From positions 114,476-178,475 of the forward strand of contig QPGO01000108.1 in NCBI GenBank assembly GCA_008632985.1: 64,000 nucleotides of DNA. Direction: 5' to 3'. This document shows, one piece after another, positions 1 through 64,000 of this stretch (positions within the stretch are counted from its first letter, which is position 1; each line of letters begins with the position of its first letter). Source of the stretch: Psammoneis japonica. Its lineage: Eukaryota. A program made the position numbers and the translations under genes. The notes below the pieces were generated by a model that worked only from the letters and a program-made list of their open reading frames with translations, had not been told where the DNA came from and made no database searches.

Positions 1-2450
1 TCAGTTGGAGGAACCTGCAATGATTGTGTGGCACAACAATTTTGTCCTTGTGACATGTTGACTGTGGCATGACCCTCCCAATGGAGCACATGGATGGAGC
101 AGTCAGACAAGTCCTCAGCTTGCAAGACCTGGTGCTTGTCCTGTTGTTGCTCTTTTTGGATGTGCCCAAAGCTGACAGACAGTGATGCCATCTGTGTCAT
201 GCCCACATTGAAAGCTTCACGCAACAGATGACAATCTGGCATCTCAACAACTTCTGGATGACACTCAAAGGCAAGCTGGGCACCAGTCAAAGTTGGCTCA
301 ATGCATCAGTGACTGGGTCATGTTGTCCCTTGATGTGCCACAATTCAGGACTGCATTCTTTGCACATCAACCTCCAGTGCAAGATTTTTATGATCATCAC
401 ATGCAACCACATGTTGACCAAGGAGAATTGTGCAAAATCCTTTCAATGTCTTTACAATGGCAAGCAGTTCTTTCTCCATTGTTGCATGGGTAACCGCACA
501 CTGTTGAGCTTTCTGCTGTGGAGAGTGGAACTGACTGGTTTGTCATTTTTGATGTGGCTGCTCCAAGTTGACATTTAGAGGCATTGGCACAAATCTCAAA
601 AGTTTTGTTGAAGTCTGGTGGATGTGCCAATGAGACATCCTTGGACAATGCTTGTTTGGCAGTTTCAAATGCTTTGTCTTCAACAGATGTCCAACTCCAG
701 CTCCAACTCCAGTTGACAGTCTTGCTTGCAAGTCTTGCAGTGGGCACCTAAATTTCAGAATGTCTGAGCCAAGTGTTGTGGTGGCAGTTCACCACACCTG
801 TGAATGAGCAGAGTTCACACTTGTTTGCAGGCTTTGCAATGTGTTTGAATCCCAGTCAACCAAATGGCCCACATCTTCCAACTGGGTCTGACAGAAGTGA
901 GACTTTGTTGTGTCAACTTTCAGCTCTGCTTTCTTGACTTGTGATGAGACTTCTTCAGTTTTGTTGGGGCATCTTCATGGGTGCCTTTGTCATCATGAGA
1001 AGGTCATCTAAGTGCACTTGCATGAATGACAGATCCTCTGATGAGGTTGACATTTTCTCCTGAAATGTGTCTGGTGAGCTGCACAGTCCCACGGCCAATG
1101 CCTGCATCTCACACTTTCCTCATGGGAAAACAAACATGCAGAGAGCTTCTCACTGTCACAAGCCAAAATGGATGTGACAACAACCCACATTTCCACATGA
1201 AGCCATCAAGCTTTGGCAGCATGTCTTGGATGTGAGGGATGGGAAAAGGCACTTGCTTTGTCCTTCTTTTGCATGAGTGTGATGGCATGGCAGATTTTCA
1301 TTCACACCTTTATCCAATGAATTGAAGCTGCAAGGCCACCCAGTGTCATGCTGGCCTTCTCCTCAGATGTCCACCATGGACTCATCTGTGGAGTCACTGA
1401 TGATGTGTGGATCATGGAAGTGATTGAGCTCCTCCTTGCACACTTCTTCTTTGCATTGGAGATGGGGGGTTTTCTGATTTTTCTTGACAATGGAGTTTGA
1501 CCTTTCCTTGTCTTGAGGTTTCCAACTGAACTTGTCAGTGCCACCACTTTTGTGTGATGTCTCAAATGTGCCTCACATGGTGCTTGAGCACTTGGCAATT
1601 TTGCACTTGGCAATTGTCAGTCATGCGGCCACAGTCAACCCCATGGAGCACACATGGCTTCTGGGCTTTCTTCTGATTCATGACCAGAATTGTCTGTTCT
1701 GCGGCCCTGCTTGTGTGGAACCTCAGCACATTGGTCTTGGATGCCTTCCACATCCTCAACCTGCATGATTTGAGTTTGGCCATGGCATGTGTCAGTGGGT
1801 CAGCAAAGTGCAGCGGCACTGCATGCTTCTGCCATGTTTGGCACATGGGCAAGTTGTGCAGCTCATCATTGGGCAATGACTCTGGCATCACGTCTCCACT
1901 GTCCATCACAGGCAGAAACTGAGGGATGCAGCCATCAATCTCAATTGCTCTCACAACACACTTGTGGGTCTTGACATCAGCCAACTTGCCATGAAACACT
2001 GCAAACAACATTTCTGCAACAGGAGTGCCACCCTGCCTGGGAAGATGCTTTGCATGACATTTGCCATGCACTCCTTGAAGGTGATGAAAGTCTCAATGTT
2101 TTTGACCATCAGCAGCATTCTTGAATGTTGTCAGGGCATTGCCCTCAAGAAGCCTGTGCAAAAATGAAAACTTTGTCACTCCTGCAGCGACATTTTGTCC
2201 CTGGAACACACGCTCAGCATTCTTCTCAAAGATCAACCACCATTCCCCACACATTCCCACAGAAATGTGTGGCAAACTTGGCTCACATGTGGAGCTGTCC
2301 TGATCCATGGGATCACAGCACAGCTTGTGCATCTGGCACTTGCCCTCCGAAGCTCCTTCTTTTCAGAGCACGAGTGGAGTTGGCGGTTGAACCCACTTCT
2401 TCATGGTTGGTTTTGCAGTTGTTGGTCCTGCCAACAGGTCACAGTCTTGG
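1..2450 (-). mobile_element. Degenerate Ty3/Gypsy LTR retrotransposon internal region (gag, RT, RNase H)
   Basis: Minus strand: gag-like WLIFEKNAERVFQGQN..RLLEGNAL (2093-2332); RT 'GKCEMQALAVGLCSSPDTFQEKM' and V-H-L-D-D-L-L (YLDD read as HLDD, 1014-1003); RNase H 'LAHP..DFNKTFEICANASKCQLGA' (consensus LAYPDF..FEIYTDASKYQLGA). Many frameshifts and stops; LTRs not delimited. Confidence 0.85.
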
Positions 2451-3209
2451 TTCTCTTAGATTTGCAACCTTGCACACCATGCAGCAGCAACATTGCTGTG
2501 CTCCATGTGCCCAACAGGTGATGAAAATGCAGGTGTGTCACAAAAGTGCTGCTGTGAAAATTGTGAGCCCAGTGGGGTTGTGCAAGCAGGAAATTTTGTC
2601 AAGCTCCTGTTTGTTCAGATTTTGTGTCACATCAAAATTGTTGCTGCTGTTTTCTTTGTGGATCATGCAAATCAGGCTGTCATGCATCTTCCACAAGTGA
2701 TGTCATTGTGACAGGCTGCACTGCCATTGGGGGGCAGACACAATGTGCCAGTGCCATGCACATGGATCATGATGCTCTGGGCATTCCTCTGAAATCACCT
2801 GAGTCAAAGAAAAGCCATGTCCTCTTTAGATCATGCTTCCCAGGTGTGCCTGAGCAGTGCCACATTGCTGCGCACCAGAGGCCAGTGCACAGCCTCACCC
2901 TGCTGGCCAGCGGGTGCATGCTGCACCACAGACATCAGGTTTGTCAGCATGTCTCAGCAGGGGAGCTCCCGTGCACTGTTTGTGCCCATGAAGCATGGCT
3001 TGGGCCATCTTCCTCACTGTCAGGTGTGCCACACTTCTCTGTGGAAGGTGCTGCTGCTTCCTCATGCTGAAGCCTCGTCATGCTGGTTTTGAGTGTTGCC
3101 CCACTCCTGGGGGCTCAAGTGTTTCTAGAAGCTCCATTGTTAAAGAATTGAAACCAAAAACTGAAGAGTTTCTTGTTTCTTCAACTCACGTGCACTGATT
3201 GGCTCTTGC

Positions 3210-4445
3210 TTGAAGAAAAAATGGATTGAAGCAAAGGAACACCTTCAAATGCACCCACAAGCAATGAATGAGATCACAACTTTGTTTGATGGTGCATCTG
3301 TTCTTCACATTCTTGCCTGTCAATTCAAACATGTCATTAAATTGAAACAAGATGATGTCTGTGATGATCATGAAGATGAAACGGAAGAAGGGGCCATGAT
3401 TTCCCGCAAAACATGTGACTTTGTGCAGTCATCATTTGACACAGCTTTCAATGGCGATGATTTAGATTCTTCTGTGAAACAGGCACTTGCATGATCAATG
3501 TTGTTTTGCCATGACACAAATGGAAATGTGCCACTGCAGAACCATGTTTGCTGCAACATGACTGCAGCAAATCCAGCACTTGTAAAGATTCTTCTTGATT
3601 TGGCTCAAATGATCTCTCCAACAACTCTGTGCAAATTGGTCACTGCCAAAAGTGACTCAGGTGTGACAGTGTTGCATTTTGTGGCCGCGGGGAGGTGCCA
3701 GCACCAGATTTTGGAGCTTCCAATGGCTTGTTGCAGTGATGCCCCATCAGAGGATCCTGCTTTGATTCCAGATGAAGATGGCAAATCTATTCTGCACAGG
3801 GTGAGTGTTGTTGTTCAATCCCCAAGGCATTGGAAGCTGCTGTTGGGACATGGTGCTGAAGGACTTGTGCATCAACATGATGGGTGTTTGTTTCCAATTG
3901 ATGTGATGTTTCAAGAGGCTGATGATTTTGAGAGACCACAAGAGTCCATCTGTGAAATCATTGATCTCATGTTGCATGCTCACTTTGGAAAACTCGAAGC
4001 AGCATCAGAAGACTGGTTTCCACTTCATGCTTTGGCACAAGCACTCTTTTGTCGTCTGCACATGTTGGAGGTTCTCCTTGAAATGTCTGACCAGAGCAAT
4101 CAGCTTTTGACCTTCAATCATCAAGGCATGTTGCCAATTCATGCAGCAGAAGCAGCACAGCCCATGCCAAAGTTGCTGCTGAGAGTCAACCAAACTCCAC
4201 TTGACCAGCTTGAAATCATCCGATCGAGTCAATCTTGTCATTGTTTGGAAAAGATCCCCAGTGAAAAAATTGTCAACCCAATGATGCCAAAGATTCTTCT
4301 CAAAACATCTGGCAGGAGCAACCAGCTCTTGACCTGCAACCATCAAGGCATGTTGCCACTTGTTTTTTTCCACTGAGAGTCAACTGAGCTCCACTTGGAC
4401 AGCTTGAGCTTTGCCCAATCAAGTCAATCTTGTCATTGTTTGGAG
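3210..4445 (+). pseudogene. Hypermutated ankyrin-repeat-like gene remnant with an internal duplication
   Basis: Motifs DTNGNVPL, SDSGVTVLHFVA, DEDGKSILH, FNHQGMLPIHAA; the segment at about 4075-4250 is repeated at about 4295-4445; in-frame stop at 3492; TA/CG depleted. Confidence 0.55.
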
Positions 4446-5639
4446 TGGAGACAGCAGAAAGAGGCAAACACAATTTGATTCTTTTGGTGCAAGAGCTCAT
4501 CCTGCTCAGGCTTTGGCTCATCCAGCAATGGCTGGTCATTGTCTTGCACTTCACCATGCCATTGTGAATTGGGTTGCAGTGTGCATTGTCAAGCAGAAGA
4601 AATTGTGCACATTCACAGGCCGGTTGCTTGTCAATCGTGCAACAATCCTCGTGGATGCATGTGAAGGTCAGATCAATCACACAGAATTGTTTGGAAGTCT
4701 AAAATTGCAGGTGCAATTGACAGATGATGTTGTCACACACAAGATGTCAATCATGTTGACTTCATCCGGACAATCTGTTGTCATGACCAGATTCTCCGAC
4801 AGGCCTTTGCTCTGTGGGAGCAGCAGCACAAATGCATCATCAGGCCATTGAGAGCTTGTTTGGAGAAACCCAAAATGGCAGAGTGAAATCCATTCTCTCA
4901 ATTTCCACTTTTCATGATTTGTTCTGCTTTCATTTGCACTCATTCTTCGAGCACAGTGCAGGGTCACGTGTGGGAAGAGCAGCAAGACAACTGCAGAAGG
5001 CTGTGCTGGGTTCAGCTGCTGCTCTTGATCCCCAAAAAGACAAGATTGTCTCCATTCTTGCTGGCTGTGTCAGCTCCCAACCCCCCCAGGCTTTGACAGG
5101 ATGTCCAATGGCAGGCTGGATGCAACACTCGAGTTGGCCTGCATTTGTCCGGAGTTGCTTCGACCTCCCTGGAGCACCCAAGCATTTTTCTCCCTGGTGA
5201 GCCAGCTGACTCAGTGACTGAGAAGGCTGCAGATGAATGTCATGTGTGTAGAGAAAACATGTAAACCCAAAATGTTGTCACATGCATTTTGGGCACTGCT
5301 GTGGAGAGATTGCAGCAAGCAAATTTCAAATTTGACCTGCACACATTGCAGATCGGCCGAGCACAAGCGCCCAATCATCAGCAGAGTCGTGGAAGTCATT
5401 CGTGTTGTTCTCCGGGCTGTAATGATTTGTGACCCTTTATTTAACAGAATGACCTGAATGATGACTTGGCTGTCGTTGCGGGTCACAACATCGCGATTCT
5501 GAATTTCTGCGGGCGTTGATCGCGAGACCAAGACAGAGAGGAATAGACGCACATTGAACGCAACACGACACTCTGCCCCAACCTCTCGCCATTCTATACT
5601 TTCTATTGACGTTTGTCTTGAGGAAGAAGAACCGCCACG

Positions 5640-8600
5640 ATGGATGATCCATTCGGTCCTCCGATAACTTCTACGAATGAGTTCGACGCCCCGATTATGG
5701 ACGATCCACTAAGTCCACCTCCGACAATGACACCAATGCCTACGGAAGATGACGACTTTGACGTAAGGCAAAAAGTTATCAGACGTCGCAAGATATTCGC
5801 AGCGGTGCTTGTGGTGACAATTTTGGTCGTTGGGTGTATTTTGATACTGCTTCAGACCGAGAGTCGGTTCTCGTCGTCCTCTAGTCCAACAGCTACAGTT
5901 GTGCATCATTCTGCATATGAGAAAGTCTCGCGTACTGAAGTGTCTGCAGTGCAAGCAGATTTAGTTGTCTACAAGCACAAAAAGACTCAAGCCCAACTGA
6001 TCACCCTTGTCCCAGTAGACAAGACGCAAGATTCTGTTTTTGGTGTCTCTTTTCGTACCTTGCCAGACTCGAGTACCGGTGTTGCACACGTCTTGGAGCA
6101 TTCCGTTCTTTCAGGTTCCGAGAAATACCCATCAAAAGACCCGTTTAATGCACTCCGAAGGGGCTCTCTTCAGACATTTTTAAATGCTTTCACCTACGCC
6201 GACAGGACCGTGTTTGCGGTTGCATCTCGCAACTTTGCAGATTACCGTAATCTAATGAGTGTGTACCTGGACGCCGTTTTTAAGCCTCGTGCAATGACAC
6301 CAGAAGGCGCTTGGATCTTGCGTCAGGAAGGTTGGCGTGTCGACGAGAATGACGATGACGAACTTGAATTCAATGGTGTGGTGTTGAGTGGTGAGTTTAC
6401 TTCTCTACAGGAGGTGCACAATATTGATCTGTTGACTCGCTAACTTCACCGTATGATCAACGTAATACCACAGAAATGAAAGGGGCTTACTCTGACCCTG
6501 AAGAGCTTTTGGAGCAATACTCTCAGACTGCTCTCTTTCCAGATACTCCTTATCAACATGATTCGGGTGGAAAGCCATCAGAAATTCCCACTTTGACTCG
6601 CGAGGACTTTGAAGCCTTTTATAGAAAGTTTTATCATCCGACGAATGCGCAGTTATTCGTCTATGGCTCCACCAGGGATGTAAGAGAGTGCATGAACCAA
6701 GCTAATGAATACCTCCAGGAGCATGAAGCTAGACCCGACATTCGAGAAAGCAGCACTGTCCCTTGGCAAGCAAAAAGTTTCGAGGAACCAAGGACAGTGC
6801 AAAAGCCTTACCCTAGCAGTGACAACGGAGATTACAAGGTACAAATCACGTGGTTGGTGAATGACGCAGTAATGGACCCAATGATGGAGACGGCATGGAA
6901 TGTATTAGATTCACTCCTTTTGGGATCGCCCACATCTGCTCTACAGAAACCTCTCATCACGTCTAACCTTGGAGATTACGTCATTGACGACGGGTTCGAT
7001 TCGACATTACAGCAGGCAACTTTTGCGGTGGGACTGGAAGGCTTAGAGAATGAAGAAGACATGGCTACCGTTGAGAGCATCATTATGGATAGTCTTAAAG
7101 AAGTTGCTGATAATGGCTTCTCGCCACAAGACGTATCCAGTGCCATGAACACTATTGAATTTGATGTGAGTACCGTTGCAGGATTGATGATATCGCAGCT
7201 ACCATATCTGACTTTCAACTCTTCTTTTTGTGTCAGATTCGTGAACTAGACAGCGAGAACGGTCCAAGAGGGATTGACCTGTTGCTTGAAGGGCTCTCAA
7301 AGTGGAACTATGATTTGGATCCGAAGTCGGCACTTCAGTACGATGATGCGTTTCAAGAATTGAAAGATATCGTCTCGGAGTCGGGATCAAAGTTTTTTGA
7401 ACAAATGGTAGCATCATTGTTGGAAAACAATCACCGAGTTGTGCTGCAGCTCGCGCCTAGTACGAACTTGGCACATAAAACGGAAGTGGTACGTACTAGC
7501 TGGTCTTTTTTGATGGCATTGAAGATGTATTTTTTCCGCCAGACAGACTATTGTTAACGGCTGCCTGTATGCTTGAAAACATTAGGATGAAGCGGAACAA
7601 CTAGAATCATTGAGCAACTCCAATGAGTTTGAACAATTGATAATCGAGTACAACGATATGAAACTGGTGCAATCTAGAGAAGATCCACCGGCCGTGTTGG
7701 AAGCCATACCGACCTTGTCGCTGGAGGACCTTGATCCATTCGGAGAAGAACTCCCAATCAAGGTCGAGAAAAACTTCCAAGGATCGGGGGTGACGGTATT
7801 GAAACATGAGGTGGCGAGTAGCTTCGGAATCGCCTATATTGACTTTGGACTTGATATATCCGAGCTTGACTTTGATGACATTCATCTGTTACCTCTCTTG
7901 TCTCAACTGATACTCGAGGCTGGAAAGGACGTGCCAAATGGAGATCTTCACCTTGCACGTGAAATTGGAATGTATACAGGTGGCATTGATGTTGACCACT
8001 TGATTGTTCCGGTCCGACCGGCCGGCTTAGACGACGATAACTTCCATGCTCTGGACGGTTCTCATTTGGCAACAAAGATATTCTTTGCAGGATCGTGTAC
8101 GACGGAAAACGCTGAGAAGCTACTTTCCCTTTATCGAGAGATGTTGCTAGAAGGTACGCTTGATGTGAAGCCCAAGGCGGTGTCCATTTTAAAGGAGATG
8201 ATATCCGACATGGAGTACTCTGTCGGCGCAGACGGCAATAGTGTGGCGAACACTCGACTCAAGGCAAGGTATGGCGTTCTTGGTTTGATGGACGAGGAGC
8301 TTTCAGGGGTTTCAACCCTCAAGAGCCTAAAGGCCGACTTGCATACTGCAAAAAGTAGTTGGAGCAGTCTTCTGGAAAGACTCGAACGGATGAAGGCGAC
8401 AATCGTTGCCGGACACCGGGATGGAATGATACTCAATCTCACCGGTGACAAAAACGTTCTAAATTCTATTGAAGATGCTGTGACAGTCTTCCTTGACAAG
8501 AATCTCCCGCCCCCGACGAATAACCCTGGGTTTGGGGATTTCTCCAAGGTGGAGCATCCATGGGTGACGAAGGCTCAACAACGTATGCTGCCTATCATTA

Positions 8601-9223
8601 ACGAGGCCTTTGTCATTCCAACACAGGTTTCGTACGTGGCGCAGGGAGGTGTACTATATCAACCAGGCGAAGAGATCGATGGATCCGCGGCTGTGATTGC
8701 TAAGTACCTCTCAACGGGTTACTTGTATGAACAGCTTCGACTAAAGCGCGGGGCGTACGGTGCACGATCTCGCCTTGATGTTCGAGCGGGTCTGTTCTCG
8801 ATGGTAACTTATCGCGATCCCAATCTGGTTTCAACTCTTGAAGTTTTCGATGGTGCTTCTGCTTCCTTGACAGCGGACGCGGTGCTTGGGCGACGAAGTA
8901 TGAGCAAACTTCCTCCAAAGGCGGCTGAAGCCGTGATTGGGACGATTGGTAGCCTAGATGGCAGCGCACCACAAAACTCCGAAATTGGCTTAACGTCGCT
9001 GCAACAATGGCTTCGTGGGGAAAGTCCCAAGCTGCGGCAAAATTGGCGCAATCAAATCCTTCGCACGAACTGGGCTGACTTTGAGGACTTTGCAAATCGT
9101 TTATCTTCTTGGAAAAACGCCACAATCGCTGTCGTGACCTCTCAAAAGGAGTACAAGGATGCCATGTCGAGTGGTATCAACCTGAAGCGCCACTTACCCC
9201 TTCAGGATAGCACAACTTTGTAG
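5640..9223 (+). CDS. Presequence protease-like M16C metallopeptidase (PreP/Cym1 family), 4 exons
   Basis: Inverted zinc motif HVLEH, plus KYPSKDPF and FLNAFTY.DRT. GT-AG introns 6391-6473, 7166-7236 and 7489-7585 restore GVVLSEMKG and IEFDIRE. C-terminal half has LR..RGAYG and YRDPN. Confidence 0.93.
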
Positions 9224-9755
9224 GAACAGCATGTGGGCGGTCTTCATGTTCAATGCCATTACTCTGTAATATGCTTTCATAATCTATTCTGTTGTATGTA
9301 ACTGTGTCATAAATGATCCTCCGGTGTCTTGGGAACTCATTACGCCTCACGCCTCACCGTTGTCTAGTCGAGCCACAAGCGCCAAGGCTACTTTTCATGC
9401 ACGACATACTTTCCACTGCTACTGGAGAGCATGCACTGAATGCGACCAATTTGCGTCTCTACCAGTGCTAAATAGGGAAATTGGTGTGAGACGTGCTCTA
9501 GCTAGACGCGTATCCAGTATTTCGCTCATACAATTCTCAAGAGATTCCTGCTTGACCTGGAAGACGCTTTCGTTTAATGGCGGAGGGTGCGAGATGGAAG
9601 ACACGCACAGATGAAGTTCTGCAGCATCCCGTCTCTCTACTAGAACCTTTGGGCGCTGACTAATCGTTGCTTTGCTAGCTAAATTGAGTTATTCCCGAAA
9701 ACATCGCAGAATCTACATACCTACCTTCGACGTTGCTGTGATGCCTTCTTTTACA

Positions 9756-11168: not shown

Positions 11169-11364
11169 TGCGTCGGCCAACGACAGTGGTGTCCACACAA
11201 ACAGTGAGTGGCAGACGATGCGCCATTGCGACGTGTGGCGTTCGTCGCGCGCGCGCGCGTCGCGTCGTTGTGGGCTGGGACAGGCGCCCAAACGTGAAAA
11301 AATTTTATGATGCTGTAGATGAAACAAGCACCCCCCTGGCCCTCTGTGCGGTGGCTAGCCCTGG

Positions 11365-18450: not shown

Positions 18451-18453
18451 GGA

Positions 18454-53883: not shown

Positions 53884-54401
53884 TGTCTTTTTGTGTCGGC
53901 AATGGCGACCGCAACGGGATGAAAGCCGGCGAACCACGTGGATGGATCTTATGCAATGACTTTTGCGTAGAATTGTACGTATTCCTTACGAGAGCGCGCA
54001 AAGATTATGTGCGCGCGATTTCGACCCTCCCATCAGGGCGAAGGAAGGACGCCGCGCGCATCAGCCTTGCTTGTCGCGCGTGCCGCTTTTTCGCTCGATC
54101 CTCGATCTTCTGCATGGAATTCAAAATGGCGGTTGATGGGAATTGTGGAATAATTCTTTGGACTGTGGACATAAAACTTCATCGTACTGGAGAACACAAA
54201 CCTGAAGATTGATGGAACTATCAGGCCCGTGGCTTGACGTGTCTATTCACATGTTTTTGCTTTTGACGTACAAACACAGAAATGCTTGCATGCATGCTTG
54301 CATGCGTGTCTGACAAAGGACCCACGACTCGAATGAAAGGCACGTTGCATTCGCCGAGTGACATTATTCTTTTCCCTCTAGCCGCTTCCGGAGAAAATTC
54401 A

Positions 54402-55247
54402 ATGAAGTTGCTCAGTGGTCTCAAGGCTCTGCGTCTGGCAAACGGCCAGGTGCTCAACGATGCGTATGTCGTTGAAGATTTTGTAGAGGATCAACTTGGA
54501 TTGGATTCTAGGAAAATTTGGGACGACCTATTGGCCATTGACAAGGAACCCGTGTTGTCCGACCAGTCATGTCACTTTCCAGAGATAGAACACTTGCCCT
54601 TCAAGGCTCGTCTCATTCCAGGAACCCATCATGCACTCAAGTATCGAGGCAACGCGGCTACTCGGGACAAGACATGGTTTCAGACCAACATTGAGGACGG
54701 CTACCTCAAATACTGGTACACGGGCTGGCAGCACATGATTTCCGCGGCACAGTGCGACGTTACGGCAATGCCCAGGTCGACCCAGGATCTCATGGATGGC
54801 ATCAATAATCTACTTCCAGAGGACGAAAAAATGAACCATGGTATCTTTACAAAGTACAAGGATGGAAACGATTGCATCGGTGCGCATTCGGACAAGTTGC
54901 AATCCTTTGCCGACAAGAGCTGGTTTATTGTGATCAAGCTGGGAGCTTCTAGGTACTTTGAGTTTACAGATCTTGATGGAGTTAGAATCTATCACGAAAA
55001 ACTCAAAGCTGGTACAGCCGTTATCGTCAAGAGCGACACGGCAAACACATTCACAAAACATGCGGTTCCTCCCATGAAAGGGCTGACAGAAGCATCCGGT
55101 AGCATTGTCTTTCGACGCATCAGTCAAGTGGTCCCCTGGAGTGAACAACTGGATAATGTGAAAAAGGCTCGACGAGAAAAACTAAAGAAGCGAAAAGAGA
55201 AGGAGGAAGAGGAGCAAGAAAAGGCTAGTAAGCGCCAACGGGTTTGA
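54402..55247 (+). CDS. AlkB-like 2OG-Fe(II) dioxygenase
   Basis: Y.DGNDCIGAHSD (HxD), LGASR.F.F, KHAVP, SIVFR; basic C-terminal NLS-like tail. Start codon uncertain. Confidence 0.85.
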   Translation: MKLLSGLKALRLANGQVLNDAYVVEDFVEDQLGLDSRKIWDDLLAIDKEPVLSDQSCHFPEIEHLPFKARLIPGTHHALKYRGNAATRDKTWFQTNIEDGYLKYWYTGWQHMISAAQCDVTAMPRSTQDLMDGINNLLPEDEKMNHGIFTKYKDGNDCIGAHSDKLQSFADKSWFIVIKLGASRYFEFTDLDGVRIYHEKLKAGTAVIVKSDTANTFTKHAVPPMKGLTEASGSIVFRRISQVVPWSEQLDNVKKARREKLKKRKEKEEEEQEKASKRQRV

Positions 55248-56706
55248 TTCGCTTCCACTCTATTCACAGAAAGCGTTTTTGAAATTCTCTAGACTGTTTG
55301 TAACCTGATTGATGAAACACGTAGCAAAATGATCTGGTAAGGTAGATAGATACCTGTAGAGCTCTTTCTCCGCATGAGGTCATTCTTTCGTAGGCAACTA
55401 TTCGATGCACGAAACGAAGGATAGAGTAGGCTCGAACAAGCTACTTGCAGAGAGAGGTTCGGCCAGAGGGAATTGGGATTTGTGAAATGTGACTCGGCAA
55501 ATACGGCATTGGACGAATCAACAAATAACGATGAAGAGTATATTCATGGCTGACAGATGTGATCTCAACAACCAATGCTCCTAAGATTTGAACAGTGAGT
55601 GAAGGACGCGGAAAAAAGAGACGATGAATAAACTTATCAAACCCCTGTTACTTAAAAAAGATAGTTCGGTCTCATGAGTAGACCTAGCAAGAGTAAGGAG
55701 AGTGATGCAACGAAAGCTTTACGATGAACATCTCGTGATTTCTTCAAAAAGTCCGATGATTATGTGGCCAAGGCTACCGATTTTCCGCTAGCTTGAGACC
55801 ACTGTACAGCGAAAAAAAGGAAAAGAATCAATGCAGATTAGTCGTCCTCGTGTATCATGACAGGTTGTACTGTACGTCTAGCGCCTCACAATCATTTCTA
55901 TGCGAGTGAATACTCACTTTCTCAAGTTTCTCGAGCATTGCTTCTGGTGGCACCGTCCCATCGGTTTTCACAACTACTTTCTTGGCTTCCACATCTGTCT
56001 GGACTTCATTTACTCCTGTTACGCAAGGGTATCAAACAAATTGGATTAGGTTCTTCTCTCAAACAGACAGGTCCGCATCCCATTTCACGTCGTGGCTCTT
56101 TGCTTGCGGAGCGAGCATGCTAAAGAACACAGCAGCCATCACACCTACCATCCATTTTTCCGAGTATCCTTTTGACGGCCGAGGCACATCCTTCACTGTT
56201 GAAATTCAGAGAGACAAATCGTGTGAGAAAAAAGGAAAAAGTTCCGGCACTCGCACATCACAAAAAAGATCGCACATACCATGTCATTCCAACATCGAAT
56301 CTAACTTCACTCATGCTTACAAATCAAAACACACGTTTCTTTTGTACACTCCTGTTACAATGCGAGTGATAGACGTCAATCCGATGCACCAATACCTAAC
56401 AAAATCTTGAATCTTGACAAAGACCGATAGATCGACTCTGACAACACTTTGCTCGAAGCCCGGGGGGGCAGGCCTCTCCCCCCCCTCAGCAGGGGTGAGA
56501 AAATGGACGCAACGCATCATGAGCCTTTCTTTGCGGGCAATCGCGCCTCCCCCCCAAGAAAGAGCACAGCATTTACTATTTCAGTACTAGAAAATACGTA
56601 CATTTCTACGTGATCACTTCACGCCAAATTATCACTTCACAGATGAGATGGAGATGGAGATCAGACTGGCTCAGAGATAGAAATTTTTCATGACAATGAT
56701 AATGTA

Positions 56707-57942
56707 ATGGTACGGTGTCTCGTCCTTTCCATGTTCAAAGCATTTTCGTGTTTTGCGTTATCTACGTTCCTTGCAAAGACTACCGAAACGTTCAAGCTTG
56801 CAGATTTACAATTCTTGGAAGCATCGTTGCAACTTCGGTGCAATCGTCTTTTGCTAGATGCAACGACTGGTAGCAACCTGCTAGAGATTGATTCCGACAT
56901 GTTTAGCAAAAAACTTCCATCAAGTATCGAGCGTTTCGATTGGGTTGGAGAGATTTTAGTGCGTGGCGATAATGCTAGAGACCTTCTTGAAAATCTTCGC
57001 TCAGCAGTTGGCATCGACCTCGGCATTCAAGATGGATGGATTTTGGACTATGAACGAATGAAGGACTGCTTGTCAGATGATACGATTACTGCCAAAAATC
57101 AGTACACATCGAAGACTCTTCTCTGCTCCCTTTCACAACTTTTCCCAAGTTGTCCCGCATTAGACCCAACAGAAGCCACGGAAAGGTTGCTAGTGGTTGA
57201 CACTGGAAAACGATTGTTCCTTACACGCATAATATATGAATCGAAAAAGGCTCCGTCCAAAACGTCTTCTGAGTCTTTCAATAAGATATGGGCCCGTCGC
57301 CCTTTTCAATATAGCTCCGCAATAAACCCTACGGTTGCAGCGATCGCCATTGACATTCTCTTGCATTTGGTAAACAAACGAGATGATGGCAGCAACCCGA
57401 CGCTTTCTCTCTTGGACCCAACTTGCGGTAGCGGCACCTTTCTGGCTTTGGCGCTGTCTCGAGGACTACAAGCACACGGTTGGGATATCAACTCGCACTG
57501 TGTTGAAGGTTCGTTGCGCAATGTGCAGCATGTCTTTGGCAGTGAAAGCCTCGACGGTCGATGCAGAATTGAAAAGCGCGACGCAACAACAGAGTTCCAG
57601 CGTAGTGGTCGGCTACCCCATGACTGCGTTGTCGCAAACCTTCCTTGGGGACAAAACACAATCAGTTATGTCAATGAAAATGAGCAGATCCTTCAGTGCT
57701 TGGCGTTATCACTCCGTTCTGGGACACCTTGTGCCTTTGTCAGCAAGGATGACGAAGTTGAGTCACACTTGAGGCGCCTTGGGTTCAACATTCTTGGGAC
57801 AGCAAGGGTTCCACAAGAAAACTACAAGGTCCCAAAAGGCAAAAAGGTGAAAGAGAAAAGCAAAAACACAAGCTCAAATACAATCAATGTGAATAAAGGA
57901 AGCAAGAACTGTGTTATAACCGTGGCTCTTTCGCCACTTTAA
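56707..57942 (+). CDS. SAM-dependent methyltransferase (RNA methylase UPF0020/Trm11-like)
   Basis: RPF..SSAINP..A, LLDPTCGSGTFL, GWDIN, VANLPWG. Confidence 0.85.
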   Translation: MVRCLVLSMFKAFSCFALSTFLAKTTETFKLADLQFLEASLQLRCNRLLLDATTGSNLLEIDSDMFSKKLPSSIERFDWVGEILVRGDNARDLLENLRSAVGIDLGIQDGWILDYERMKDCLSDDTITAKNQYTSKTLLCSLSQLFPSCPALDPTEATERLLVVDTGKRLFLTRIIYESKKAPSKTSSESFNKIWARRPFQYSSAINPTVAAIAIDILLHLVNKRDDGSNPTLSLLDPTCGSGTFLALALSRGLQAHGWDINSHCVEGSLRNVQHVFGSESLDGRCRIEKRDATTEFQRSGRLPHDCVVANLPWGQNTISYVNENEQILQCLALSLRSGTPCAFVSKDDEVESHLRRLGFNILGTARVPQENYKVPKGKKVKEKSKNTSSNTINVNKGSKNCVITVALSPL

Positions 57943-58058
57943 TCTTTTTGCAATTCGTTCTTGGCATGCTGTAAATCATTTTGTAGGAGGTAGAATCATG
58001 TCTACATTTTCCAACCATTCTGGTGATATGATGAATTGAAGAAAGAAGCGATGCAAAA

Positions 58059-58205
58059 AGACTTGGAAGACCCAGGTCAACGCATCTACATACGTCAACC
58101 TAGGTCTTCCAAGTCTCTATCCACTCGAACCCGGGCCAGGTCTCTCGCTTGCGTCTACAGTGCACTCTAGAGGCGGGGCCCCAGGAGCCTGGCCCGGGTT
58201 CGAGT
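58059..58205. repeat. Two adjacent inverted repeats (hairpins)
   Basis: AGACTTGGAAGACC..GGTCTTCCAAGTCT (58059-58116) and ACTCGAACCCGGGCCAGG..CCTGGCCCGGGTTCGAGT (58123-58205). Confidence 0.9.
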
Positions 58206-58768
58206 AGATGACAGTGTTGATAGTTTTAAAACATATAAAGCCTGACAAGCTAGCATCCTTCTCCCGAAAACCTGAAATCCCTCGAACCAAGCGTGTCTCA
58301 TCCGTGTCGAGTGAGTATGGCAGATACTCAATTTCTTATATCAATGATCTATCAGTCGCTGCTTTGTTCTATGGTGGGCTTCGTATTTCAGCGTTTTGTT
58401 CCGAATAATCTTTTTGTGATAGGGAGGGGGGGGGGGGGTTAAGTTGTGAGCCCAACCGTACAGTAGTGGTTGCACGAGGGATATGCCTGTGGGTAACATG
58501 CACTTGCGCGCAACTTGCTTCTGTGCGAGCAAGTACATTGAAGCTGAAGGTGACAGGAGATGGTACATGTTGTAGGATTCAATGTTCTCAAGCCGAAGCG
58601 AAGATGAAGTTAGCTCACGACAAGGCAGAACCATAGCATCACGACGAGTAAAGGGGTAGAGATTATGGAATCGATGACAACAGAGGAACAGCTCGTTGAC
58701 GTTAAGGAAGACCTGAAGTATGCTACATTGTTCAAAGTTATGGCTGTGTGGCCATCAATAGAAGGTTC

Positions 58769-59877
58769 TCAATAAGGGAGGAGTTGCTTTGGCTCATCCC
58801 ACTCGAGAACGCCCGCAACATCACCAGAACGAAGCCATTCCCATCGCTCCCAAAGGATGGCGTCGGGCCCACCAAACATGCATTCCATTCTATCTGGTGT
58901 GAATCGAAATGCCTTGCATCAAGACGGAGATAAAGTGTCAGATGGTTTGGTGGCAGGTCATGCAGCACGCACAATCATACCGTAGACTGACTTACCTGAA
59001 TACTTTCGTCCATCTCCTCGTTTGAGATGTCTCCATTTTCCAGCTCGATTCGGACCTTTTGAGTCACCTCTGTGAAATGGCTCTTTCTTGCTAGGAGAAG
59101 CCGATGCTTACATAATTGATCAACAGGGGAAAAAGTTAGAGTTCCGTTTGCTAGAAAAGGTAGACGTGAATCGAATGTGCGCCTTTCGCAGCATTGAAGA
59201 CTTACATCAGACACTCCATCGCCCCTGTAGCCTTTTTCTCGCTCTTCTTTTTCCAGTCGTGTTGTAGCAATCATTCCACTTAGCGTGTAATGAGGGACCT
59301 TATCTAGGATTTCCGACAGCGAGAGTGCTTCACATTGGCCTTCCGCTCGCCACTGCTGTGCTTTTTCTCCAACCTGATAGTGGCCTTTTAGGTACAAAAA
59401 CGAGACGGGAGATCCGTCATTTTCATCAAGGGCGTTGGCCAAGCTACCTTTACTCTTGGTGACAAAGTCAACCCCATCAGGAGCAATGCGTTGCAACCCG
59501 ACTGTCCGCAGATCAGGCGGCTGGATCGCAGTGATGTGAACATTCGTCGAAACATGAGATCAAATCCGGAGTAATACAAACACAAAAAAGCACAGTATTC
59601 ATACCGTATTTTCTTCCTTTGAACCAACAGCAAGCGAGAATACCCAATGAACACCTGGACGACGAAAGCCCTTATCATCACACAGGTTGCGATCGATCGA
59701 TTCTTTCTTCATGACGGCAAGCGGATCCGCTCCCGGAGATGCATGCCTCGCCAAACCTCGCTTTTGACCATAACAAAGCTTCTTTGCAACGGGGACTTGT
59801 CGTCTTGATGCTCGAGCTAGAACATTGCTTACAAGCATCCTTGGCATAACGCGACGGGAGGATAACAACAACATCAT
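58769..59877 (-). CDS. Pyridoxamine 5'-phosphate oxidase-like FMN-binding protein with mitochondrial-type leader, multi-exon
   Basis: PDLRTVGLQRI..GVDFVT, QWRAEG, and last exon AFRFTPDRMECMLGG..ERWEW..W..LLPY*; intron 58913-58995; two further introns are inferred near 59530-59605 and 59120-59215, boundaries not fixed. Confidence 0.65.
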
Positions 59878-60326
59878 GGTGATGGTTTCGAAGTTAGAAT
59901 GACAAGAATCCAGAAAAAATACGCACGGACGATCTTTTGACGCGCGTTTCTGCGCTCTGCGCGCTCGTCGATGACCGGGCTTATTCCCGCCCGATTGACG
60001 ATGCCCGATTCATGGACTTGCAGTGTTCGCAAGTGACAGGCTCTGGAGTAGAAGTACTGTAGCTAGTTTCTCTTAGCCTATGAAACTTGCGCTGTTCGAT
60101 GCAGCAGCTATCGACAGCTATTTTGATTTTCTTGTTTACGTCTCCTTTGACCAAAGCTTCGCCACAATGTAGAGACGTTTGAAAGCAAATTTGAGGTGAC
60201 GAGCTAGGAGGAAAGTGCATCCCAAGCAATAAGGTTCATTCATTGAACACTCTAGTAGATGTTGCGAGAAGAAATATAAAAGAGATGGAAGACAAATACA
60301 AGCTAAAACCCATTCTTTTTAAGTCA

Positions 60327-61010
60327 TTAATGCTTCTTTTGGCATTTTGGATTGCTACTCTTTCTCCATCGTTCATCCAAGCTCTTAATGTCGCACGGAT
60401 ACAGTGGCTTTCCCAGTTTTGTGTTGACTATATTGTGTTGTTCACATAACCACGTACACAATTCTTTTCGTGAAGATGTTCTGTCATTCAAGCAACAACA
60501 AAAAGAGTTAGAAAATACAAAATGACAATTCATGCAAGAACGAAAAAACCGACTCACGGAACGGGCTTTTTTTGCAGATTGTCTTGAAAGTCCGTTGCAC
60601 ACCAGGGACAAGGATAGAATCGTGCAAAGGAGCTGAAAAAGTACTTCATGAGCTTCTGATCGTCCTGACTGGGTTCATCGGGATACCATGCCGCCTAAAA
60701 ATGTGGACGATTTTGGCGTTGAGAGCAAAAGAATCGAGAATCCAAAACTTTTTTTTTAAATCAACAATCGTACCATATTGTGAAGCAAGGTCCAAGATGC
60801 TTTTCCAAGCTCTGAACTCGTTGGAGGACATTGTACCTTTTTGGTTGCTTCCTTTGTACCGTCGTCAGTTTGCTGCACACGAGCCATGGCGGCCGAAAGA
60901 GCGGTCACCGTGTCGTCGCATGCGGGACGATCGCAATCGTCCATGAGATTCGAGTAGCCTTTTGGCAAGGCCGATGGATTCTTCGACTTTTGATCATCCG
61001 ATTTCGCCAT
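60327..61010 (-). CDS. ERV1: Erv1/ALR FAD-linked sulfhydryl oxidase, 3 exons
   Basis: CPP...ELG..SW.LLH.MAAWYP, YPCPWCA, WLCEQHN.VN.KLGKP..C; introns 60695-60773 and 60481-60557. Confidence 0.93.
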
Positions 61011-61572
61011 TATGGGCGGAGAACGATTAATGTTGCAGATGTTTAGTTTGTAGTTTGAAAAGAGAGGTCTTCGACTATTGCAGATTTTTCTTTGAAACAG
61101 GAAATGAAGCGCCTCGCAAATCAAAATGCTTTTCTTGTGGCGCCAAACCATTCGCGCAAAATTCGCGCGAAAACGCTTCCCCTTCTCGCTTACTTATCTC
61201 GCGTTGATTCCGCGTTCAAACTTCCAACGTGTTGAAAGTGTGTGGAGTGTAAATGCCACCTTGAACCTATCGTGGCTGCTGTGAGTTGCGACAATAATGA
61301 GGCACTTAAGAATGGATCGTTGTCCTGGTAGAACGATTGAGCAGTCAAAAGAGAGTTTTTATAAAAGTGCCGGTAGGGTGGTAGCCTGCCGTGGGATTGC
61401 GTTTCGTTGTGTAGTGGGCTCGAGCTATATCCCAGACACCCTTGCACCTGTTGTCGGCTGCGGAAATACGGCCGAAGCAATCGCGACATAAGGAACCCAT
61501 GCATGCATTGTTGCTTTACCAATGAAGACTGACTTTGTTGGATCATACCATACCAGCGTGTCGTACTTGATT

Positions 61573-62889
61573 TTAACCTTGATCGTTTCGTTTCGGTTCA
61601 GATGCGCACCATGCGAAGCCGATCTGGTTCAGTCTTTCAATGCGATCCTTCGGGAGGAACTCCTTTCTAGACCTTTGAACGTGGATCCAAGACCCTAATT
61701 TGGGATCATCCGTGCATATGCTAGGAACCAAACAATGTCCGAATTTGGCCTTGAACGCGCAAAGCCGCTGGAACATGGAGTTCCAAGTTCGGTCGTGAAC
61801 ATTCCATACGAAGCCAATGTCGTTCAATCGCTGCAATCGTTCTTGCCCCATTTCTTCTCTATCTCTGTTTCTTTGAGTATCGACCCATCTACCTGTGTTG
61901 TAAATCGAGAGAAAAGAAGGTAGTGGTGTCATATAAGAGTAGCCGAGAAGCAGGTTTGAGAAGTCCGTCAGCTTATTGCAACTGATGTGAAAAAAATCTG
62001 GTGCAATATAGCACAGACTCCTCTTACCTAATTTTGGGTCTTCCTTATACTTCCGTGGGACCATGCAGTGCCCGTGCCTTTGCTTAAACGCTTCAAGACG
62101 ACGAAACATGATATTCCACGTTTCGTTGTAGGTCGAGTTCCAATTGATCCCGATGCTCTCAAGTCGACGGACACGTTCTGGGCTGAGTTTTCCTTGTCTC
62201 TTCAACTTCTTTTGGTTTCGAATCCAACGACCCAGTTTTGGGAAGTCCCGTTCCTTTAGAAGGCAGCTGCCTCCATTCCTGCGACGGTACATATCCAATT
62301 CATCAAACATGGATTCCCAAGAAGGAGGTGGCCGTGCTGGTTGTTCTTCTTCGTGATCTCGGCGACGATTGTTGGAGGGCGGGATGGTGGTGTCATCATG
62401 AGTGCTACCACTTAAAACAACTTCAGTGCTATAATGAAGGGGCGGTGTCAAAGAAGAGGACCCAACAACAGCAGCGTATGGTGCTGCTGTTCTTCTGGCT
62501 TGTTGGGGAATTACTATGCCGCTGGCGCCTCCTACTGCAGAACCAGATATGGCGGCTTCCGTAGCAGCTGCTGCCAGCATCATCGTGTTTCTTCTTTGAT
62601 GGTCACTTATATGTTGCAACCTCGCTTCTAGTAGTAGTCTTTCGACTACCGATGTGGCTGCCATTGGGTAAGCTGGCAGCATGTTGGGTGGGGCGCCAAC
62701 AAGAAAGCCTAAAACGCCTGTGTTGTAAAGATGTGCAGGCACACTACTAGTCGTTCTTACCAGTTGCCAAGGAGGATAAGGGACTATCGATTGTGGCACT
62801 AGATTATACTCTGGAACTGATTGGCTCAAATCAGGAACATTATTTGTCTGTTGTTGCGATGAACGGCGACGGGGTTGTTGGGATGCCAT
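61573..62889 (-). CDS. Helicase-associated (HA) repeat protein
   Basis: Three W..MF..L..F/Y....G.C.VP....PKLG.W...QR/K......R..RL..IGF.W repeats; in-frame intron 61893-62027. Confidence 0.9.
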   Translation of the reverse strand: MASQQPRRRSSQQQTNNVPDLSQSVPEYNLVPQSIVPYPPWQLVRTTSSVPAHLYNTGVLGFLVGAPPNMLPAYPMAATSVVERLLLEARLQHISDHQRRNTMMLAAAATEAAISGSAVGGASGIVIPQQARRTAAPYAAVVGSSSLTPPLHYSTEVVLSGSTHDDTTIPPSNNRRRDHEEEQPARPPPSWESMFDELDMYRRRNGGSCLLKERDFPKLGRWIRNQKKLKRQGKLSPERVRRLESIGINWNSTYNETWNIMFRRLEAFKQRHGHCMVPRKYKEDPKLGKRSLCYIAPDFFHISCNKLTDFSNLLLGYSYMTPLPSFLSIYNTGRWVDTQRNRDREEMGQERLQRLNDIGFVWNVHDRTWNSMFQRLCAFKAKFGHCLVPSICTDDPKLGSWIHVQRSRKEFLPKDRIERLNQIGFAWCASEPKRNDQG

Positions 62890-63379
62890 GCTGAAGCGAA
62901 AAAATAAGAATGGATGATGAATAATAAATCCGCGTCGACGCACCCGAAGGAAGCACGTCAGAATTCGGCAGGTTTTCACGTTCAGTGTGGCAATAGAGGC
63001 ATTAATTTACTTATGGATAATGCATTACCATTTGATTTAACGACTGAACTATTACTAAAACGGTTGCAACTCGTAAAACTTCATTGAATATACATACGCT
63101 TATGTTAATTATCAACCCCATAAAATGTCTCTAGGCTTTTCATCAGTCAAAACATCTAATCTACCGCCCCACGGTAGTAAGTGTCGTACCAGTGAGGCTG
63201 TTGGCACCTGTCGTAATCGTAGTTTTCGGAATAAATGGGCATGCTACAAGGCATTCGTGAATGACGCTTATTGTCATAGTAAGCGGTCCCACGTTTCTTC
63301 AGGGGCAGTTGCTCTCTTCCACACTGCACTGAATCGAGTGCTGTCAAACCGTGACGGTTACATGTACGCGACTGGCGAC

Positions 63380-64000
63380 TGCGACACTGCGACCTGCTGT
63401 GCTGCATGCGAGCGAGCACATGTGCACGACTTTCGTGGAGGCACATTGTGACTTTATTTGGGGGTTTTGGGCCATGTGAGAACGTTGCCATGTTGGGGTG
63501 CAGCTCAACACAATGAGAGTTCCTTTGTTGCCAGACTTTTGGTTGCTTTTGGTCTCTTGAAAAAAAAATGGAGAACCAGCTCCAGACGTCCTCTGGCCCT
63601 GTCTCGGTTGGGGCTCCATCATCAGAGCCAAATTTGGAGGGTTCTCCACCTGGCTGACCGGCAAGCTGGGGTTTGAGAAAAGGCAGCACACACATTTGTT
63701 TGTGACAAATCAGTCAGATTTGTTGCAAATTGCCCCATTTCATCATGAATTGGTGTGATCTGACAACCTGAGTTTGCCAACAACAAATGCCTGGGGTTGC
63801 AAGCCAACGCATTGTCTGCCCAGCCAGCACAGCGTGAAATGCAGCTGCCAGCTTTTGCACTCACAAAATGTTCAATTTGATGGCAGTGGAGTGTTGCCAT
63901 GGAGTTTCACATCAAGGGGGGTCATCCCTGCACCCACCCTAGAATTGCCGTGGCATTTGAATGAGGACATTTGCGGCACTTGTTTTTGAGTGCAAAAGTT
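63380..64000. repeat. Start of another hypermutated repeat domain; possible Harbinger-type transposase fragment
   Basis: TA nearly absent after about 63370; AFGLLKKKWR..RPL at about 63545-63600 resembles the DDE_Tnp_4 motif. Confidence 0.45.

Follow-up and report, generated by a model that had tools for sequence, protein, structure and literature searches.

The repeat-induced point mutation (RIP) of fungi changes C to T at CpA, creating TpA, and it needs duplicated sequence, of which it mutates both copies. Diatom transposable elements (TEs) are CpG-methylated, and targeted A:T→G:C hypermutation of DNA is, to our knowledge, almost unknown in nature. Here we describe the loss of the dinucleotide TA (TpA) from TE-filled domains of a 64,000-nt stretch of Psammoneis japonica DNA (GenBank assembly GCA_008632985.1, contig QPGO01000108.1, positions 114,476 to 178,475 of the forward strand), which is referred to throughout as the window. 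The closest described system is that of Bigelowiella natans, in which mutation-accumulation lines acquired de novo TpA→TpG/CpA changes, at ~6e-7 per site per generation, in integrated nucleocytoplasmic large DNA virus (NCLDV) and virophage sequences (Mettrop et al., bioRxiv 10.64898/2026.01.13.699255). According to that preprint, the genome carries TpA-depleted, CpA- and TpG-enriched clusters that are enriched in reverse transcriptase (RT) and DDE domains, the NCLDV and virophage inserts retain 3.3% and 9.2% TpA, and a DNA adenine deaminase, with an ADAT2-like candidate, is proposed as the agent (bioRxiv 10.64898/2026.01.13.699255). The main text of the preprint makes no mention of diatoms, stramenopiles, or flanking or trinucleotide context; its supplementary tables may hold flanking-base data.

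A search of the published literature found no diatom report of TpA→TpG/CpA hypermutation, and the B. natans preprint was the one description found. An earlier note on the window, made from its letters alone, had proposed that a second, near-saturating A:T→G:C process acts at TpA on both strands, and had known of no established description. The first proposal was supported by the polarity of the changes, their strand symmetry, their independence of CpG decay and the spectrum of a related TE family; the second is overtaken by the preprint. We hold with high confidence that the process is real, specific to TA and acts at the level of DNA. The explanation that we consider probable as a whole is that silent, TE-filled chromatin domains are hypermutated from TpA to TpG/CpA by a process separate from, and more complete than, CpG decay.

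TA-poor blocks and independent reads of the locus

The TA-poor DNA and the genic DNA that served as control were as follows (no strand is assigned to these features).

1–5288: TA-poor, CpG-poor block 1, a degraded Ty3/Gypsy element that continues beyond the left window end
11457–15298: TA-poor, CpG-poor block 2, an element without family identity (8 TA in 3,842 bp)
19237–38970: composite TA-poor domain of ~19.7 kb, made up of degraded elements nested in one another and of repeat units with (GA)n tails
41385–44922: TA-poor, CpG-poor block with no Pfam match and no recognisable family (10 TA in 3,538 bp)
63431–64000: start of a further TA-poor block that continues past the right window end (2 TA in 570 bp)
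5595–11354: control DNA with PreP (+ strand, three GT..AG introns) and an FSH1 hydrolase (− strand), from Pfam matches and spliced contigs of the X2 run described below
44923–63430: control DNA with GFO/IDH/MocA, sulfotransferase (Sulfotransfer_4), Sec24, 2-oxoglutarate (2OG) oxygenase, methyltransferase and HA-domain protein genes, from Pfam matches

Segmentation of the window returned TA-poor blocks at 1/604–5288, 11457–15298, 15859–17190, 19237–20670, 21230–27404, 28034–35852, 36349–38970, 41385–44922 and 63431–64000, and the short gaps within 19.2–39.0 kb were likewise TA-poor (observed/expected ratio, obs/exp, 0.13–0.25). Per kb, the TA obs/exp was 0.01–0.17 in the blocks and 0.45–0.9 in the rest of the window, and segmentation together with 100-bp bins placed the block edges within ~100–200 bp. 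The per-kb tables and the segmentation thus confirmed the earlier description of five sharply bounded, CA/TG-rich domains that almost lack TA, with genes of ordinary TA between them. The domain that had been quoted as 11.3–15.3 kb was indeed TA-poor, but its end really lies at ~17,150 bp, on the far side of a CpG-normal sulfatase gene copy. Block 1 had a TA obs/exp of 0.01–0.08, a CG obs/exp of 0.04–0.19 and a CA/TG obs/exp of 1.6–2.1, with 14 TA between 604 bp and 5288 bp and a right edge at ~5300–5400 bp. The composite domain showed a TA obs/exp of 0.02–0.17 per kb with variable CpG (0.1–1.0), and the transition into the block at the right end lay at ~63300–63400 bp. The corresponding TA and CG values were 0.57 and 0.92 for the first control region and 0.59 and 0.95 for the second, and across the genes TA obs/exp was 0.53–0.59.

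When pooled, the TA-poor DNA contained 106 TA in 31,968 bp and the normal DNA 1,087 in 27,800 bp. At the local genic rate 1,250 TA were expected in the poor blocks (Fisher p = 6e-241), so that ~92% of the expected TA was missing, and it reappeared as CA/TG. TA frequency was 0.33% in the blocks and 3.91% in normal DNA, CG frequency 1.96% and 5.49%, and the frequency of CA and of TG, each, 10.65% and 7.28%. The balance was almost closed: TA+CG fell by 7.1 points and CA+TG rose by 6.7 points with base composition unchanged, the loss of TA (3.58 points) being about equal to that of CG (3.53 points). AA/TT was not depleted (8.02% in the blocks, 7.74% in normal DNA). Because TAA (108) and TAG (65) almost vanish from the blocks, where TGA was counted 1,576 times, all six frames look open there.

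Decay of 5-methylcytosine (5mC) at CpG, taken as the sole cause, would have removed only CG and spared TA, whereas TA was equally lost. CpG loss was also uneven among the blocks (obs/exp 0.04–1.0) while TA loss was uniform, and there are therefore two processes. The earlier claim that TA loss is distinct from 5mC decay is upheld by this difference and by the sulfatase copy, in which TA obs/exp was ~0.1 and CG obs/exp ~0.75.

A sequencing or assembly artefact would place the signature outside the genome: a base modification of TEs at TA would be misread as CA or TG, the true sequence being TA. Two runs of one sample bore on this. X1 is a DNA run (0.79 of sampled words) with contigs built from 31-mers; X2 is labelled 'DNA?', and its three GT..AG joints in PreP mark it as cDNA-like. 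X1 contigs covered 30/30 bins of window 1–20000 at a word depth of ~50–70, in genes as in blocks; of 135 contigs, 77 matched at ≥99% identity and 58 at 95–99%. Contigs of 561–1,491 nt lay within the TA-poor blocks and differed from the window by ~1%. An assembly artefact is unlikely because independent k-mer contigs reproduced the TA-poor sequence. A symmetric modification would moreover yield both TG and CA reads at each site and shatter 31-mer contigs, whereas the contigs stood at full depth with ~99% agreement and each site had one fixed outcome. The sulfatase copy of the window is also one base shorter than its transcript, unrelated metagenome assemblies showed the same graded signature, and the changes in B. 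natans arose, according to the preprint, as heritable mutations. In favour of an artefact, the transcript has T or A where the assembly has C or G, as misreading would also predict; X1 is probably the assembly's own sample, and its library type is not on record. Taken together, we regard misreading as very improbable.

The differences between X1 and the window were informative in themselves. Among the 32 visible in block 1, 11 were of the CpG type (CG↔TG/CA), and TA-type differences occurred at 5 sites, including TG↔CA doubles at 2818/2819 and 3290/3291; both decays therefore still segregate. X2 cover was absent over 668–4002 and 11340–15341, an absence that is no proof of TE silence.

The sulfatase gene copy and the spared duplicate

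The independence from CpG decay was clearest in a gene copy that adjoins block 2. The two features compared here are listed below.

15299–17150, + strand: hypermutated sulfatase gene copy, TA-poor and CpG-normal (sulfatase Pfam match, E 3e-27)
10615–11895, no strand: segmental duplication, copy 1, which runs from gene sequence across the edge into TA-poor DNA; copy 2 lies at 18451–19643

The gene model of the sulfatase copy begins with an ATG at 15481, has an intron at ~15736–15854 with the donor GCAAG, and ends its open reading frame (ORF) at 17497. A reading in which the protein lacked ~30 N-terminal residues and had an active-site Cys→Ser change was rejected, as the gene reading and the RNA joint identified it as intron read-through. 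The copy was aligned with 27 homologues (46–55% identity), and columns in which ≥80% of these have Tyr were scored. Tyr was kept in 3/17 such columns, the others reading Cys in 7 (TGY), His in 6 (CAY) and Asn in 1, whereas 206/270 other conserved residues were kept (W 10/10, H 6/6, F 11/13; p = 1.5e-6 versus Tyr). Exon 1 likewise reads DDCGF for DDYGF. Replacements other than those of Tyr included CTA→CCA twice, ATA→ATG, and, twice, ACC→GCC in a codon preceded by t. The Tyr→Cys/His direction that had been noticed in the window thus holds for the sulfatase, and it was seen likewise in the Gypsy and RT remnants described below.

A spliced transcript contig of 2,067 nt from X2 aligned without gaps to the sulfatase copy between 15854 bp and 17569 bp and differed from it at 54 places. 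Of the 77 X2 differences in total, 27 were window-C/read-T and 34 window-G/read-A (61/77), and the interval 15854–17149 lacked 46 TA (5 observed, 51 expected). Across the exon junction the transcript encodes SSCAPTRS; the window copy is one base short there, at the Cys codon. An unmutated, expressed version of the sulfatase therefore exists, and the window copy is probably its dead, hypermutated counterpart. X1 depth over the sulfatase (52–55) was about that of the flanks (~57); the mutated and unmutated versions might accordingly be alleles, a claim that contig depth alone cannot carry.

The position of the domain edge bears on how the process is targeted. The TA-poor state that begins at 11,457 bp crosses the CpG-poor element and then the sulfatase copy, reaching ~1.9 kb from the TE into the neighbouring gene copy. 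TA returned to normal from ~17150 bp, within the gene, though homology to the transcript extends to 17,569 bp. The segmental duplication is in tandem, ~7.8 kb apart, and contains an FSH1 serine-hydrolase gene and the start of the adjoining TA-poor DNA. Its FSH1 duplicates (~600 bp, 95% identity) both have normal TA, flank the TA-poor DNA and are covered by transcript contigs; the TA-poor portion shares 93% identity with 3 CA↔TG doubles. An X1 contig joint from 11205 to 19087, which links the two 95%-identical duplicates, was considered as a haplotype lacking the segment, and was set aside as probably a k-mer chimera, having 30 letters only on one side.

The word 'repeat-targeted', in the sense that it has for RIP, was not borne out: a 600-bp duplicate of 95% identity keeps its TA, and a gene copy that is not a TE was hit while its expressed version is unmutated. 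Spreading within a chromatin domain fits better than RIP-style sensing of homology because the domain stops inside the sulfatase gene and the FSH1 duplicates are spared. On this evidence an enzyme would be recruited by a silent chromatin state and not by homology pairing, a proposal to which we give about even chances.

Mobile-element remnants, directional spectrum and neighbouring genes

Two remnants in the blocks could be compared with intact relatives.

250–1500, − strand: Gypsy RT–RNase H remnant (RT_RNaseH_2 match, E 2.8e-8) with 12 TGA and 2 other stops
20444–20785, + strand: RT-like ORF piece (FVDD ... NLCMCIPPHSAHPPG) with 1,276 relatives at E≤1e-3

The peptide motifs quoted in the earlier note exist at 1003–1014 (HLDD, − strand), 571–594 (ICANASKC, − strand), 20358–20381 (PPCATLCC, + strand) and 20645–20659 (NLCMC, + strand). 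A Pfam scan of the 235 block ORFs of ≥70 aa (3 host-gene ORFs in the initial list of 238 were excluded) gave a single match past the curated cut-off, RT_RNaseH_2 at 400–747 (− strand), and did not confirm the label 'Sola'. From the order RT then RT_RNaseH-type RNase H, and from a relative with integrase, the element at 1–5288 is assigned to the Ty3/Gypsy long terminal repeat (LTR) retrotransposons. That intact relative, P0168, has RVT_1, RT_RNaseH and Integrase_H2C2 domains. The remnant contained 0.2% Y, 7.4% C and 5.0% H, compared with 3.9%, 1.4% and 2.1% in P0168; the 12 aligned Tyr columns of P0168 read Y in 1, C in 3, H in 3 and other residues in 5, and its YIDD is HLDD in the remnant. Two of three database relatives of the remnant were Tyr-poor themselves.

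The RT-like piece reads NLCMC where the consensus of its relatives is NLYLY (NLYLYIPPHSAHPPG), with Cys at both Tyr positions; of the best 150 relatives (among 1,276), 140 have the second Tyr of NLYLYIPPHSAHPPG. Two of these best 150 had ≥50% C/H at the 4 consensus-Tyr columns, which are too few columns to weigh. Full-length members of the family (P0175, P0185, P0191, P0195 and P0219) are 648–704 aa long and carry the motifs YIDD and NLYLYIPPHSAHPPG. None of these five matched a Pfam family at E≤1e-3 and P0175 matched no PDB chain, and this large family appears to consist of RT-like mobile-element proteins that the libraries lack. As for the label 'PLE' (Penelope-like element), only YxDD-type motifs were seen in the piece and the label was not confirmed.

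A second, diverged copy of the RT-like element lies at 25858–27161, and a 701-bp paralogue pair at 20795–21489 and 36464–37160 (691 aligned bp) differed by transitions at 64/67 positions. CA↔TG double mismatches were seen at 14 sites in the 701-bp pair and at 33 between the two diverged RT-element copies; TE copies decay independently. Paralogues within the window cannot separate a TA from a CG origin of such doubles, which was settled by protein homology and by an environmental family.

This family comprised 80 loci of Gypsy-remnant family DNA from metagenome contigs. In the matched part, TA obs/exp was below 0.2 in 3 loci, 0.2–0.4 in 9 and ≥0.4 in 68. All 12 loci below 0.4 matched P0167 at ≥69% identity, and none of the loci at ≤62% was depleted. 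The 43 copies aligned had ≥73% identity, with two at 69% (L034 and L036) added and L009, L010 and L025 excluded for insertions; they span TA obs/exp from 0.87 to 0.04, and their GC content climbs along this range from 43% to 50%. The directional spectrum of these copies, which the earlier note had proposed as a check, revealed an A>G excess specific to TA. In the 6 lowest-TA copies, A>G per strand-site was 0.367 at TA, 0.063 at AA, 0.056 at CA and 0.046 at GA; in the 18 middle copies it was 0.239, 0.039, 0.039 and 0.036, respectively. The 3′ base mattered as well (TAC 0.503, TAT 0.494, TAG 0.237, TAA 0.270). Single copies illustrate the range: L019 kept 1/34 TA (16 TG, 17 CA, 0 CG) with 19/613 other sites changed (~3%), L016 kept 10/45 with 3.2% change elsewhere, and L004 (TA obs/exp 0.87) kept 64/67. 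C>T at CpG was 0.099 in the high-TA group, 0.108 in the middle group and 0.148 in the low group.

Across the family, TG (333) and CA (303) were about equally frequent outcomes, and both kinds occurred within every copy. Runs tests on their order gave z from −0.5 to +1.8, that is, no clustering, the outcomes being interspersed along the element. Flanking bases (R, purine; Y, pyrimidine) had the following effects.

RTAY: TA lost 85%, TG share of losses 0.43
YTAY: TA lost 59%, TG share of losses 0.67
RTAR: TA lost 62%, TG share of losses 0.32
YTAR: TA lost 29%, TG share of losses 0.49

The TG share differed between YTAY and RTAR (p = 4e-8), so the fate of an A on either strand depends on the base 3′ to it on that strand. 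The target motif is 5′-TAY, with sensitivity in the order RTAY > YTAY = RTAR > YTAR. The TA that survive in the window follow this order too: relative to normal frequency, they were 0.6% for RTAY, 5.3% for YTAY/RTAR, 29.7% for YTAR and 52% for TTAA. The direction is TA→TG/CA, and both strands are equally hit. Strand symmetry, the lack of clustering and the flanking rule speak for duplex DNA that was struck many times independently.

Three alternatives meet this spectrum. In the first, an ADAR-like A-to-I hyperediting of retroelement RNA would be fixed by reverse transcription and reinsertion; many of the targets are retroelements, and ADAR favours a 5′ U according to the B. natans preprint (bioRxiv 10.64898/2026.01.13.699255). 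RNA editing predicts changes on the sense strand only, whereas both outcomes were seen in the family (TG 333, CA 303), in the sulfatase residues (Cys 7, His 6) and in the transcript comparison (C>T 27, G>A 34). The non-retroelement gene copy was hit together with its intron and splice donor, and whole domains were affected, including intergenic DNA and DNA without family, so that this route is scarcely credible.

Error-prone repair synthesis, recruited to methylated or damaged heterochromatin, had been one of the candidates of the earlier note. Pol eta makes A→G changes at WA motifs (W, A or T). WA includes AA, yet the rate at AA stood close to those at CA and GA and far from that at TA, and AA/TT is undepleted in the window. 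The outcomes show no strand-coordinated clustering, and near-saturation with ~3% collateral change, as in L019, is difficult for patch synthesis. A Pol-eta-like origin is thus disfavoured and highly unlikely.

Lastly, the elements might avoid TA themselves, for example to escape a TA-cutting nuclease or TA-targeting insertions, with no hypermutation at all; such short-word avoidance is known in phages. Against native composition or selection, function was destroyed: the YxDD motif is without its catalytic Tyr, the sulfatase has lost 14/17 of its conserved Tyr, and TGA stops abound in the ORFs. Intact relatives have normal TA (P0168; L004, 0.87), and unrelated sequence classes are TA-poor alike, sharing domain edges and not element identity. 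The chance that TA avoidance explains the blocks is, in our judgement, minimal.

Two further observations were made among the environmental loci. On locus L034 (1–6549), TA obs/exp changed from 0.43–0.70 in the first 1.5 kb to 0.03–0.25 over the Gypsy copy, which suggests a domain boundary like those of the window in another host. Four distant Gypsy relatives (L058, L060, L064 and L069; 51–60% identity) had a CpG obs/exp of 0.00–0.14 and a TA obs/exp of 0.58–0.88; this is pure CpG decay without TA loss, and the two processes occur separately in different hosts.

Elsewhere in the blocks, a PIF1-helicase-like fragment at 11438–11692 (+ strand) in block 2 was weak and below cut-off (E 5.5e-4), and hints at a Helitron-like element; the left flank of this block is duplicated at 19196–19643. 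The stretch 28034–35852 is a 7.8-kb TA-poor region with a CpG obs/exp of 0.3–0.66, long open frames on both strands and internal tandem repeats of 171 bp, 129 bp and 30–39 bp. Its ORFs matched no Pfam family, and it may be a TE, a viral insert or of other origin. Perfect (GA)n/(AG)n runs of 13–18 units at 21164–21193, 23282–23308, 23568–23597, 27183–27214 and 36833–36868 bound repeated units of ~330–700 bp, and both RT-element copies terminate at one; from their sequence these runs resemble 3′ tails of simple repeats, as a non-LTR or PLE-like family would carry.

The window is assigned by its gene content to the nuclear genome of a diatom. The intron-poor Sec24 gene (50836–53484, − strand) encodes a protein with 63–76% identity to diatom proteins, including those of Fistulifera, Seminavis, Nitzschia, Epithemia and Discostella, and the HA-domain host protein carries four HA domains. 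Genes for an AlkB-type 2OG-Fe(II) oxygenase (54267–55247, + strand; PF13532, slightly below cut-off) and an RMKL/UPF0020-type methyltransferase (56647–57942, + strand) are neighbours; both are nucleic-acid-modifying folds, with no link to the hypermutation. Between 38970 bp and 41385 bp, a 2.4-kb island of normal TA (0.55) and CpG (0.85) is flanked by TA-poor blocks. It contains two overlapping ORFs (39002–39625 and 39469–40185) with no Pfam match, and may be a host gene protected from hypermutation.

Mechanism, significance and comparison with known systems

We propose that a sequence-reading deaminase, possibly of the TadA/ADAT2 kind, would convert adenine to hypoxanthine within duplex DNA; we put the chances of this chemistry at slightly less than even. 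The result would be an irreversible inactivation of mobile and foreign DNA, in which Tyr codons, the catalytic YxDD Tyr and GTAAG-type splice donors would be erased. Natural TadA/ADAT2 members differ from such an enzyme in acting on tRNA, where the deaminases read U33-A34, and the editors derived from TadA are engineered, Cas-guided and active on single-stranded DNA. We know of no natural TadA/ADAT2 member that acts on duplex DNA and is targeted to chromatin. The likeness lies in the conversion of adenine to inosine, read as A→G, and in sequence preference: a TadA-8e variant is reported to edit A in a 'YAC' context on DNA (PMC13109818), resembling 5′-T-A-Y. We treat this resemblance as a lead and not as a test.

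Thymine chemistry would give the same product, since an A→G change at TAY on one strand reads exactly as T→C at RTA on its complement. On this view T in 5′-R-T-A of silent DNA would be marked (5-hydroxymethyluracil/5-formyluracil type) by some modifier, for instance a TET/JBP-like dioxygenase, and the marked base would mispair with G. In some protists hydroxylated thymine serves as a DNA mark, and 5-formyluracil promotes A:T→G:C mutations. Nothing in the analysis favours this route specifically, however; the experimental precedent in B. natans proposes adenine deamination, also without proof, and the likeness of TAY to the 'YAC' of TadA-type enzymes favours adenine. Marking of thymine is accordingly regarded as unlikely.

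Several points weigh against hypermutation by adenine deamination in silent chromatin, or limit how far it can be taken. In sequence alone, A→G on one strand looks identical to T→C on the opposite one, and both the deaminase and its targeting by chromatin are inferences. In the environmental family, changes were polarised against the state held by most of the 19 copies whose TA obs/exp was ≥0.65, and the copies share ancestry so that counts are not independent. TA loss was moderately correlated both with divergence of other kinds (rho 0.47) and with the loss of CpG (rho 0.46), making age a partial confounder. In the sulfatase, the association of the preceding base with a Cys or His outcome was suggestive at most (p = 0.10), the 54 differences from the transcript are assigned to former TA sites by count and not by position, and the unmutated version is either an allele or a paralogue of the window copy.

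It is conceivable, though we doubt it on balance, that diatoms, chlorarachniophytes and perhaps much of SAR (stramenopiles, alveolates and Rhizaria) share an old genome-defence enzyme. This would be a duplex-DNA adenine deaminase with the target 5′-T-A-Y, recruited to silent or foreign chromatin, that disarms transposons and integrated viruses. If so, it would erase Tyr codons, TAA/TAG stops, TATA-like signals and GTAAG donors; it would mirror fungal RIP in the reverse direction and stand as nature's equivalent of the engineered adenine base editors. Near-saturation in diatom transposons, together with a graded environmental TE family, suggests that the defence is widespread and no mere curiosity. 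The motif, the symmetry pointing to duplex DNA, the CpG independence and the sulfatase copy with its unmutated counterpart are handles for an enzyme hunt and for in vitro assays, and a natural duplex-DNA adenine deaminase, if true, would be of interest to base-editing technology. For annotation, the lost TAA/TAG stops and Tyr codons make hypermutated TEs resemble long unknown ORFs that escape family models (1/235 past the Pfam cut-off). The hypermutation may also shape diatom genome composition and the birth and death of genes beside TEs.

Compared with known systems, 5mC decay is also active in the blocks, where CG obs/exp falls to 0.04, and also yields TG/CA; it differs in that it cannot remove TA and is absent from the hypermutated sulfatase copy. 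APOBEC and ADAR editing of animal retroelements is likewise a hypermutation by deaminases: it depends on sequence context, strikes mobile elements and ends up fixed in the genome. Those enzymes act on one strand of cDNA or RNA and leave asymmetric G→A or A→G changes, whereas the changes here are symmetric, domain-wide and extend to non-retroelement DNA. Fungal RIP shares the dinucleotide-specific transition hypermutation, the ruin of mobile DNA, the sharp compositional domains and the capacity to leak into neighbouring genes. The direction here is opposite, with TA lost and CA/TG gained; in addition, the 600-bp duplicate at 95% identity was untouched and the expressed version of the sulfatase unmutated.

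The B. natans process, as set out in its preprint, is the most similar: changes are almost only A→G/T→C, at TpA only, on both strands and in foreign or mobile regions, with a gain of CpA and TpG. In the window we found the corresponding transitions, the T-preceded A, the loss of TpA with gain of CpA and TpG, and confinement to mobile DNA with one exception, the sulfatase gene copy adjoining a TE. The differences are that the B. natans host is a chlorarachniophyte (Rhizaria) with viral targets, whereas the targets here are diatom transposon domains near saturation (0.33% TA), and that B. natans shows the process occurring in real time while the diatom signature is known here from sequence. On de novo change in the diatom the evidence is indirect only, namely the TA↔TG/CA and TG↔CA differences that separate the window from X1 contigs and the almost purely TA-type divergence of the sulfatase copy. 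The window thus adds a second eukaryotic phylum, with a case close to saturation, to a recently described hypermutation process. Relative to what the preprint describes, the new elements are the target motif with its flanking rule (TAY > TAR), the behaviour of the two strands, the separability from CpG decay and the collateral damage to a neighbouring host gene copy.

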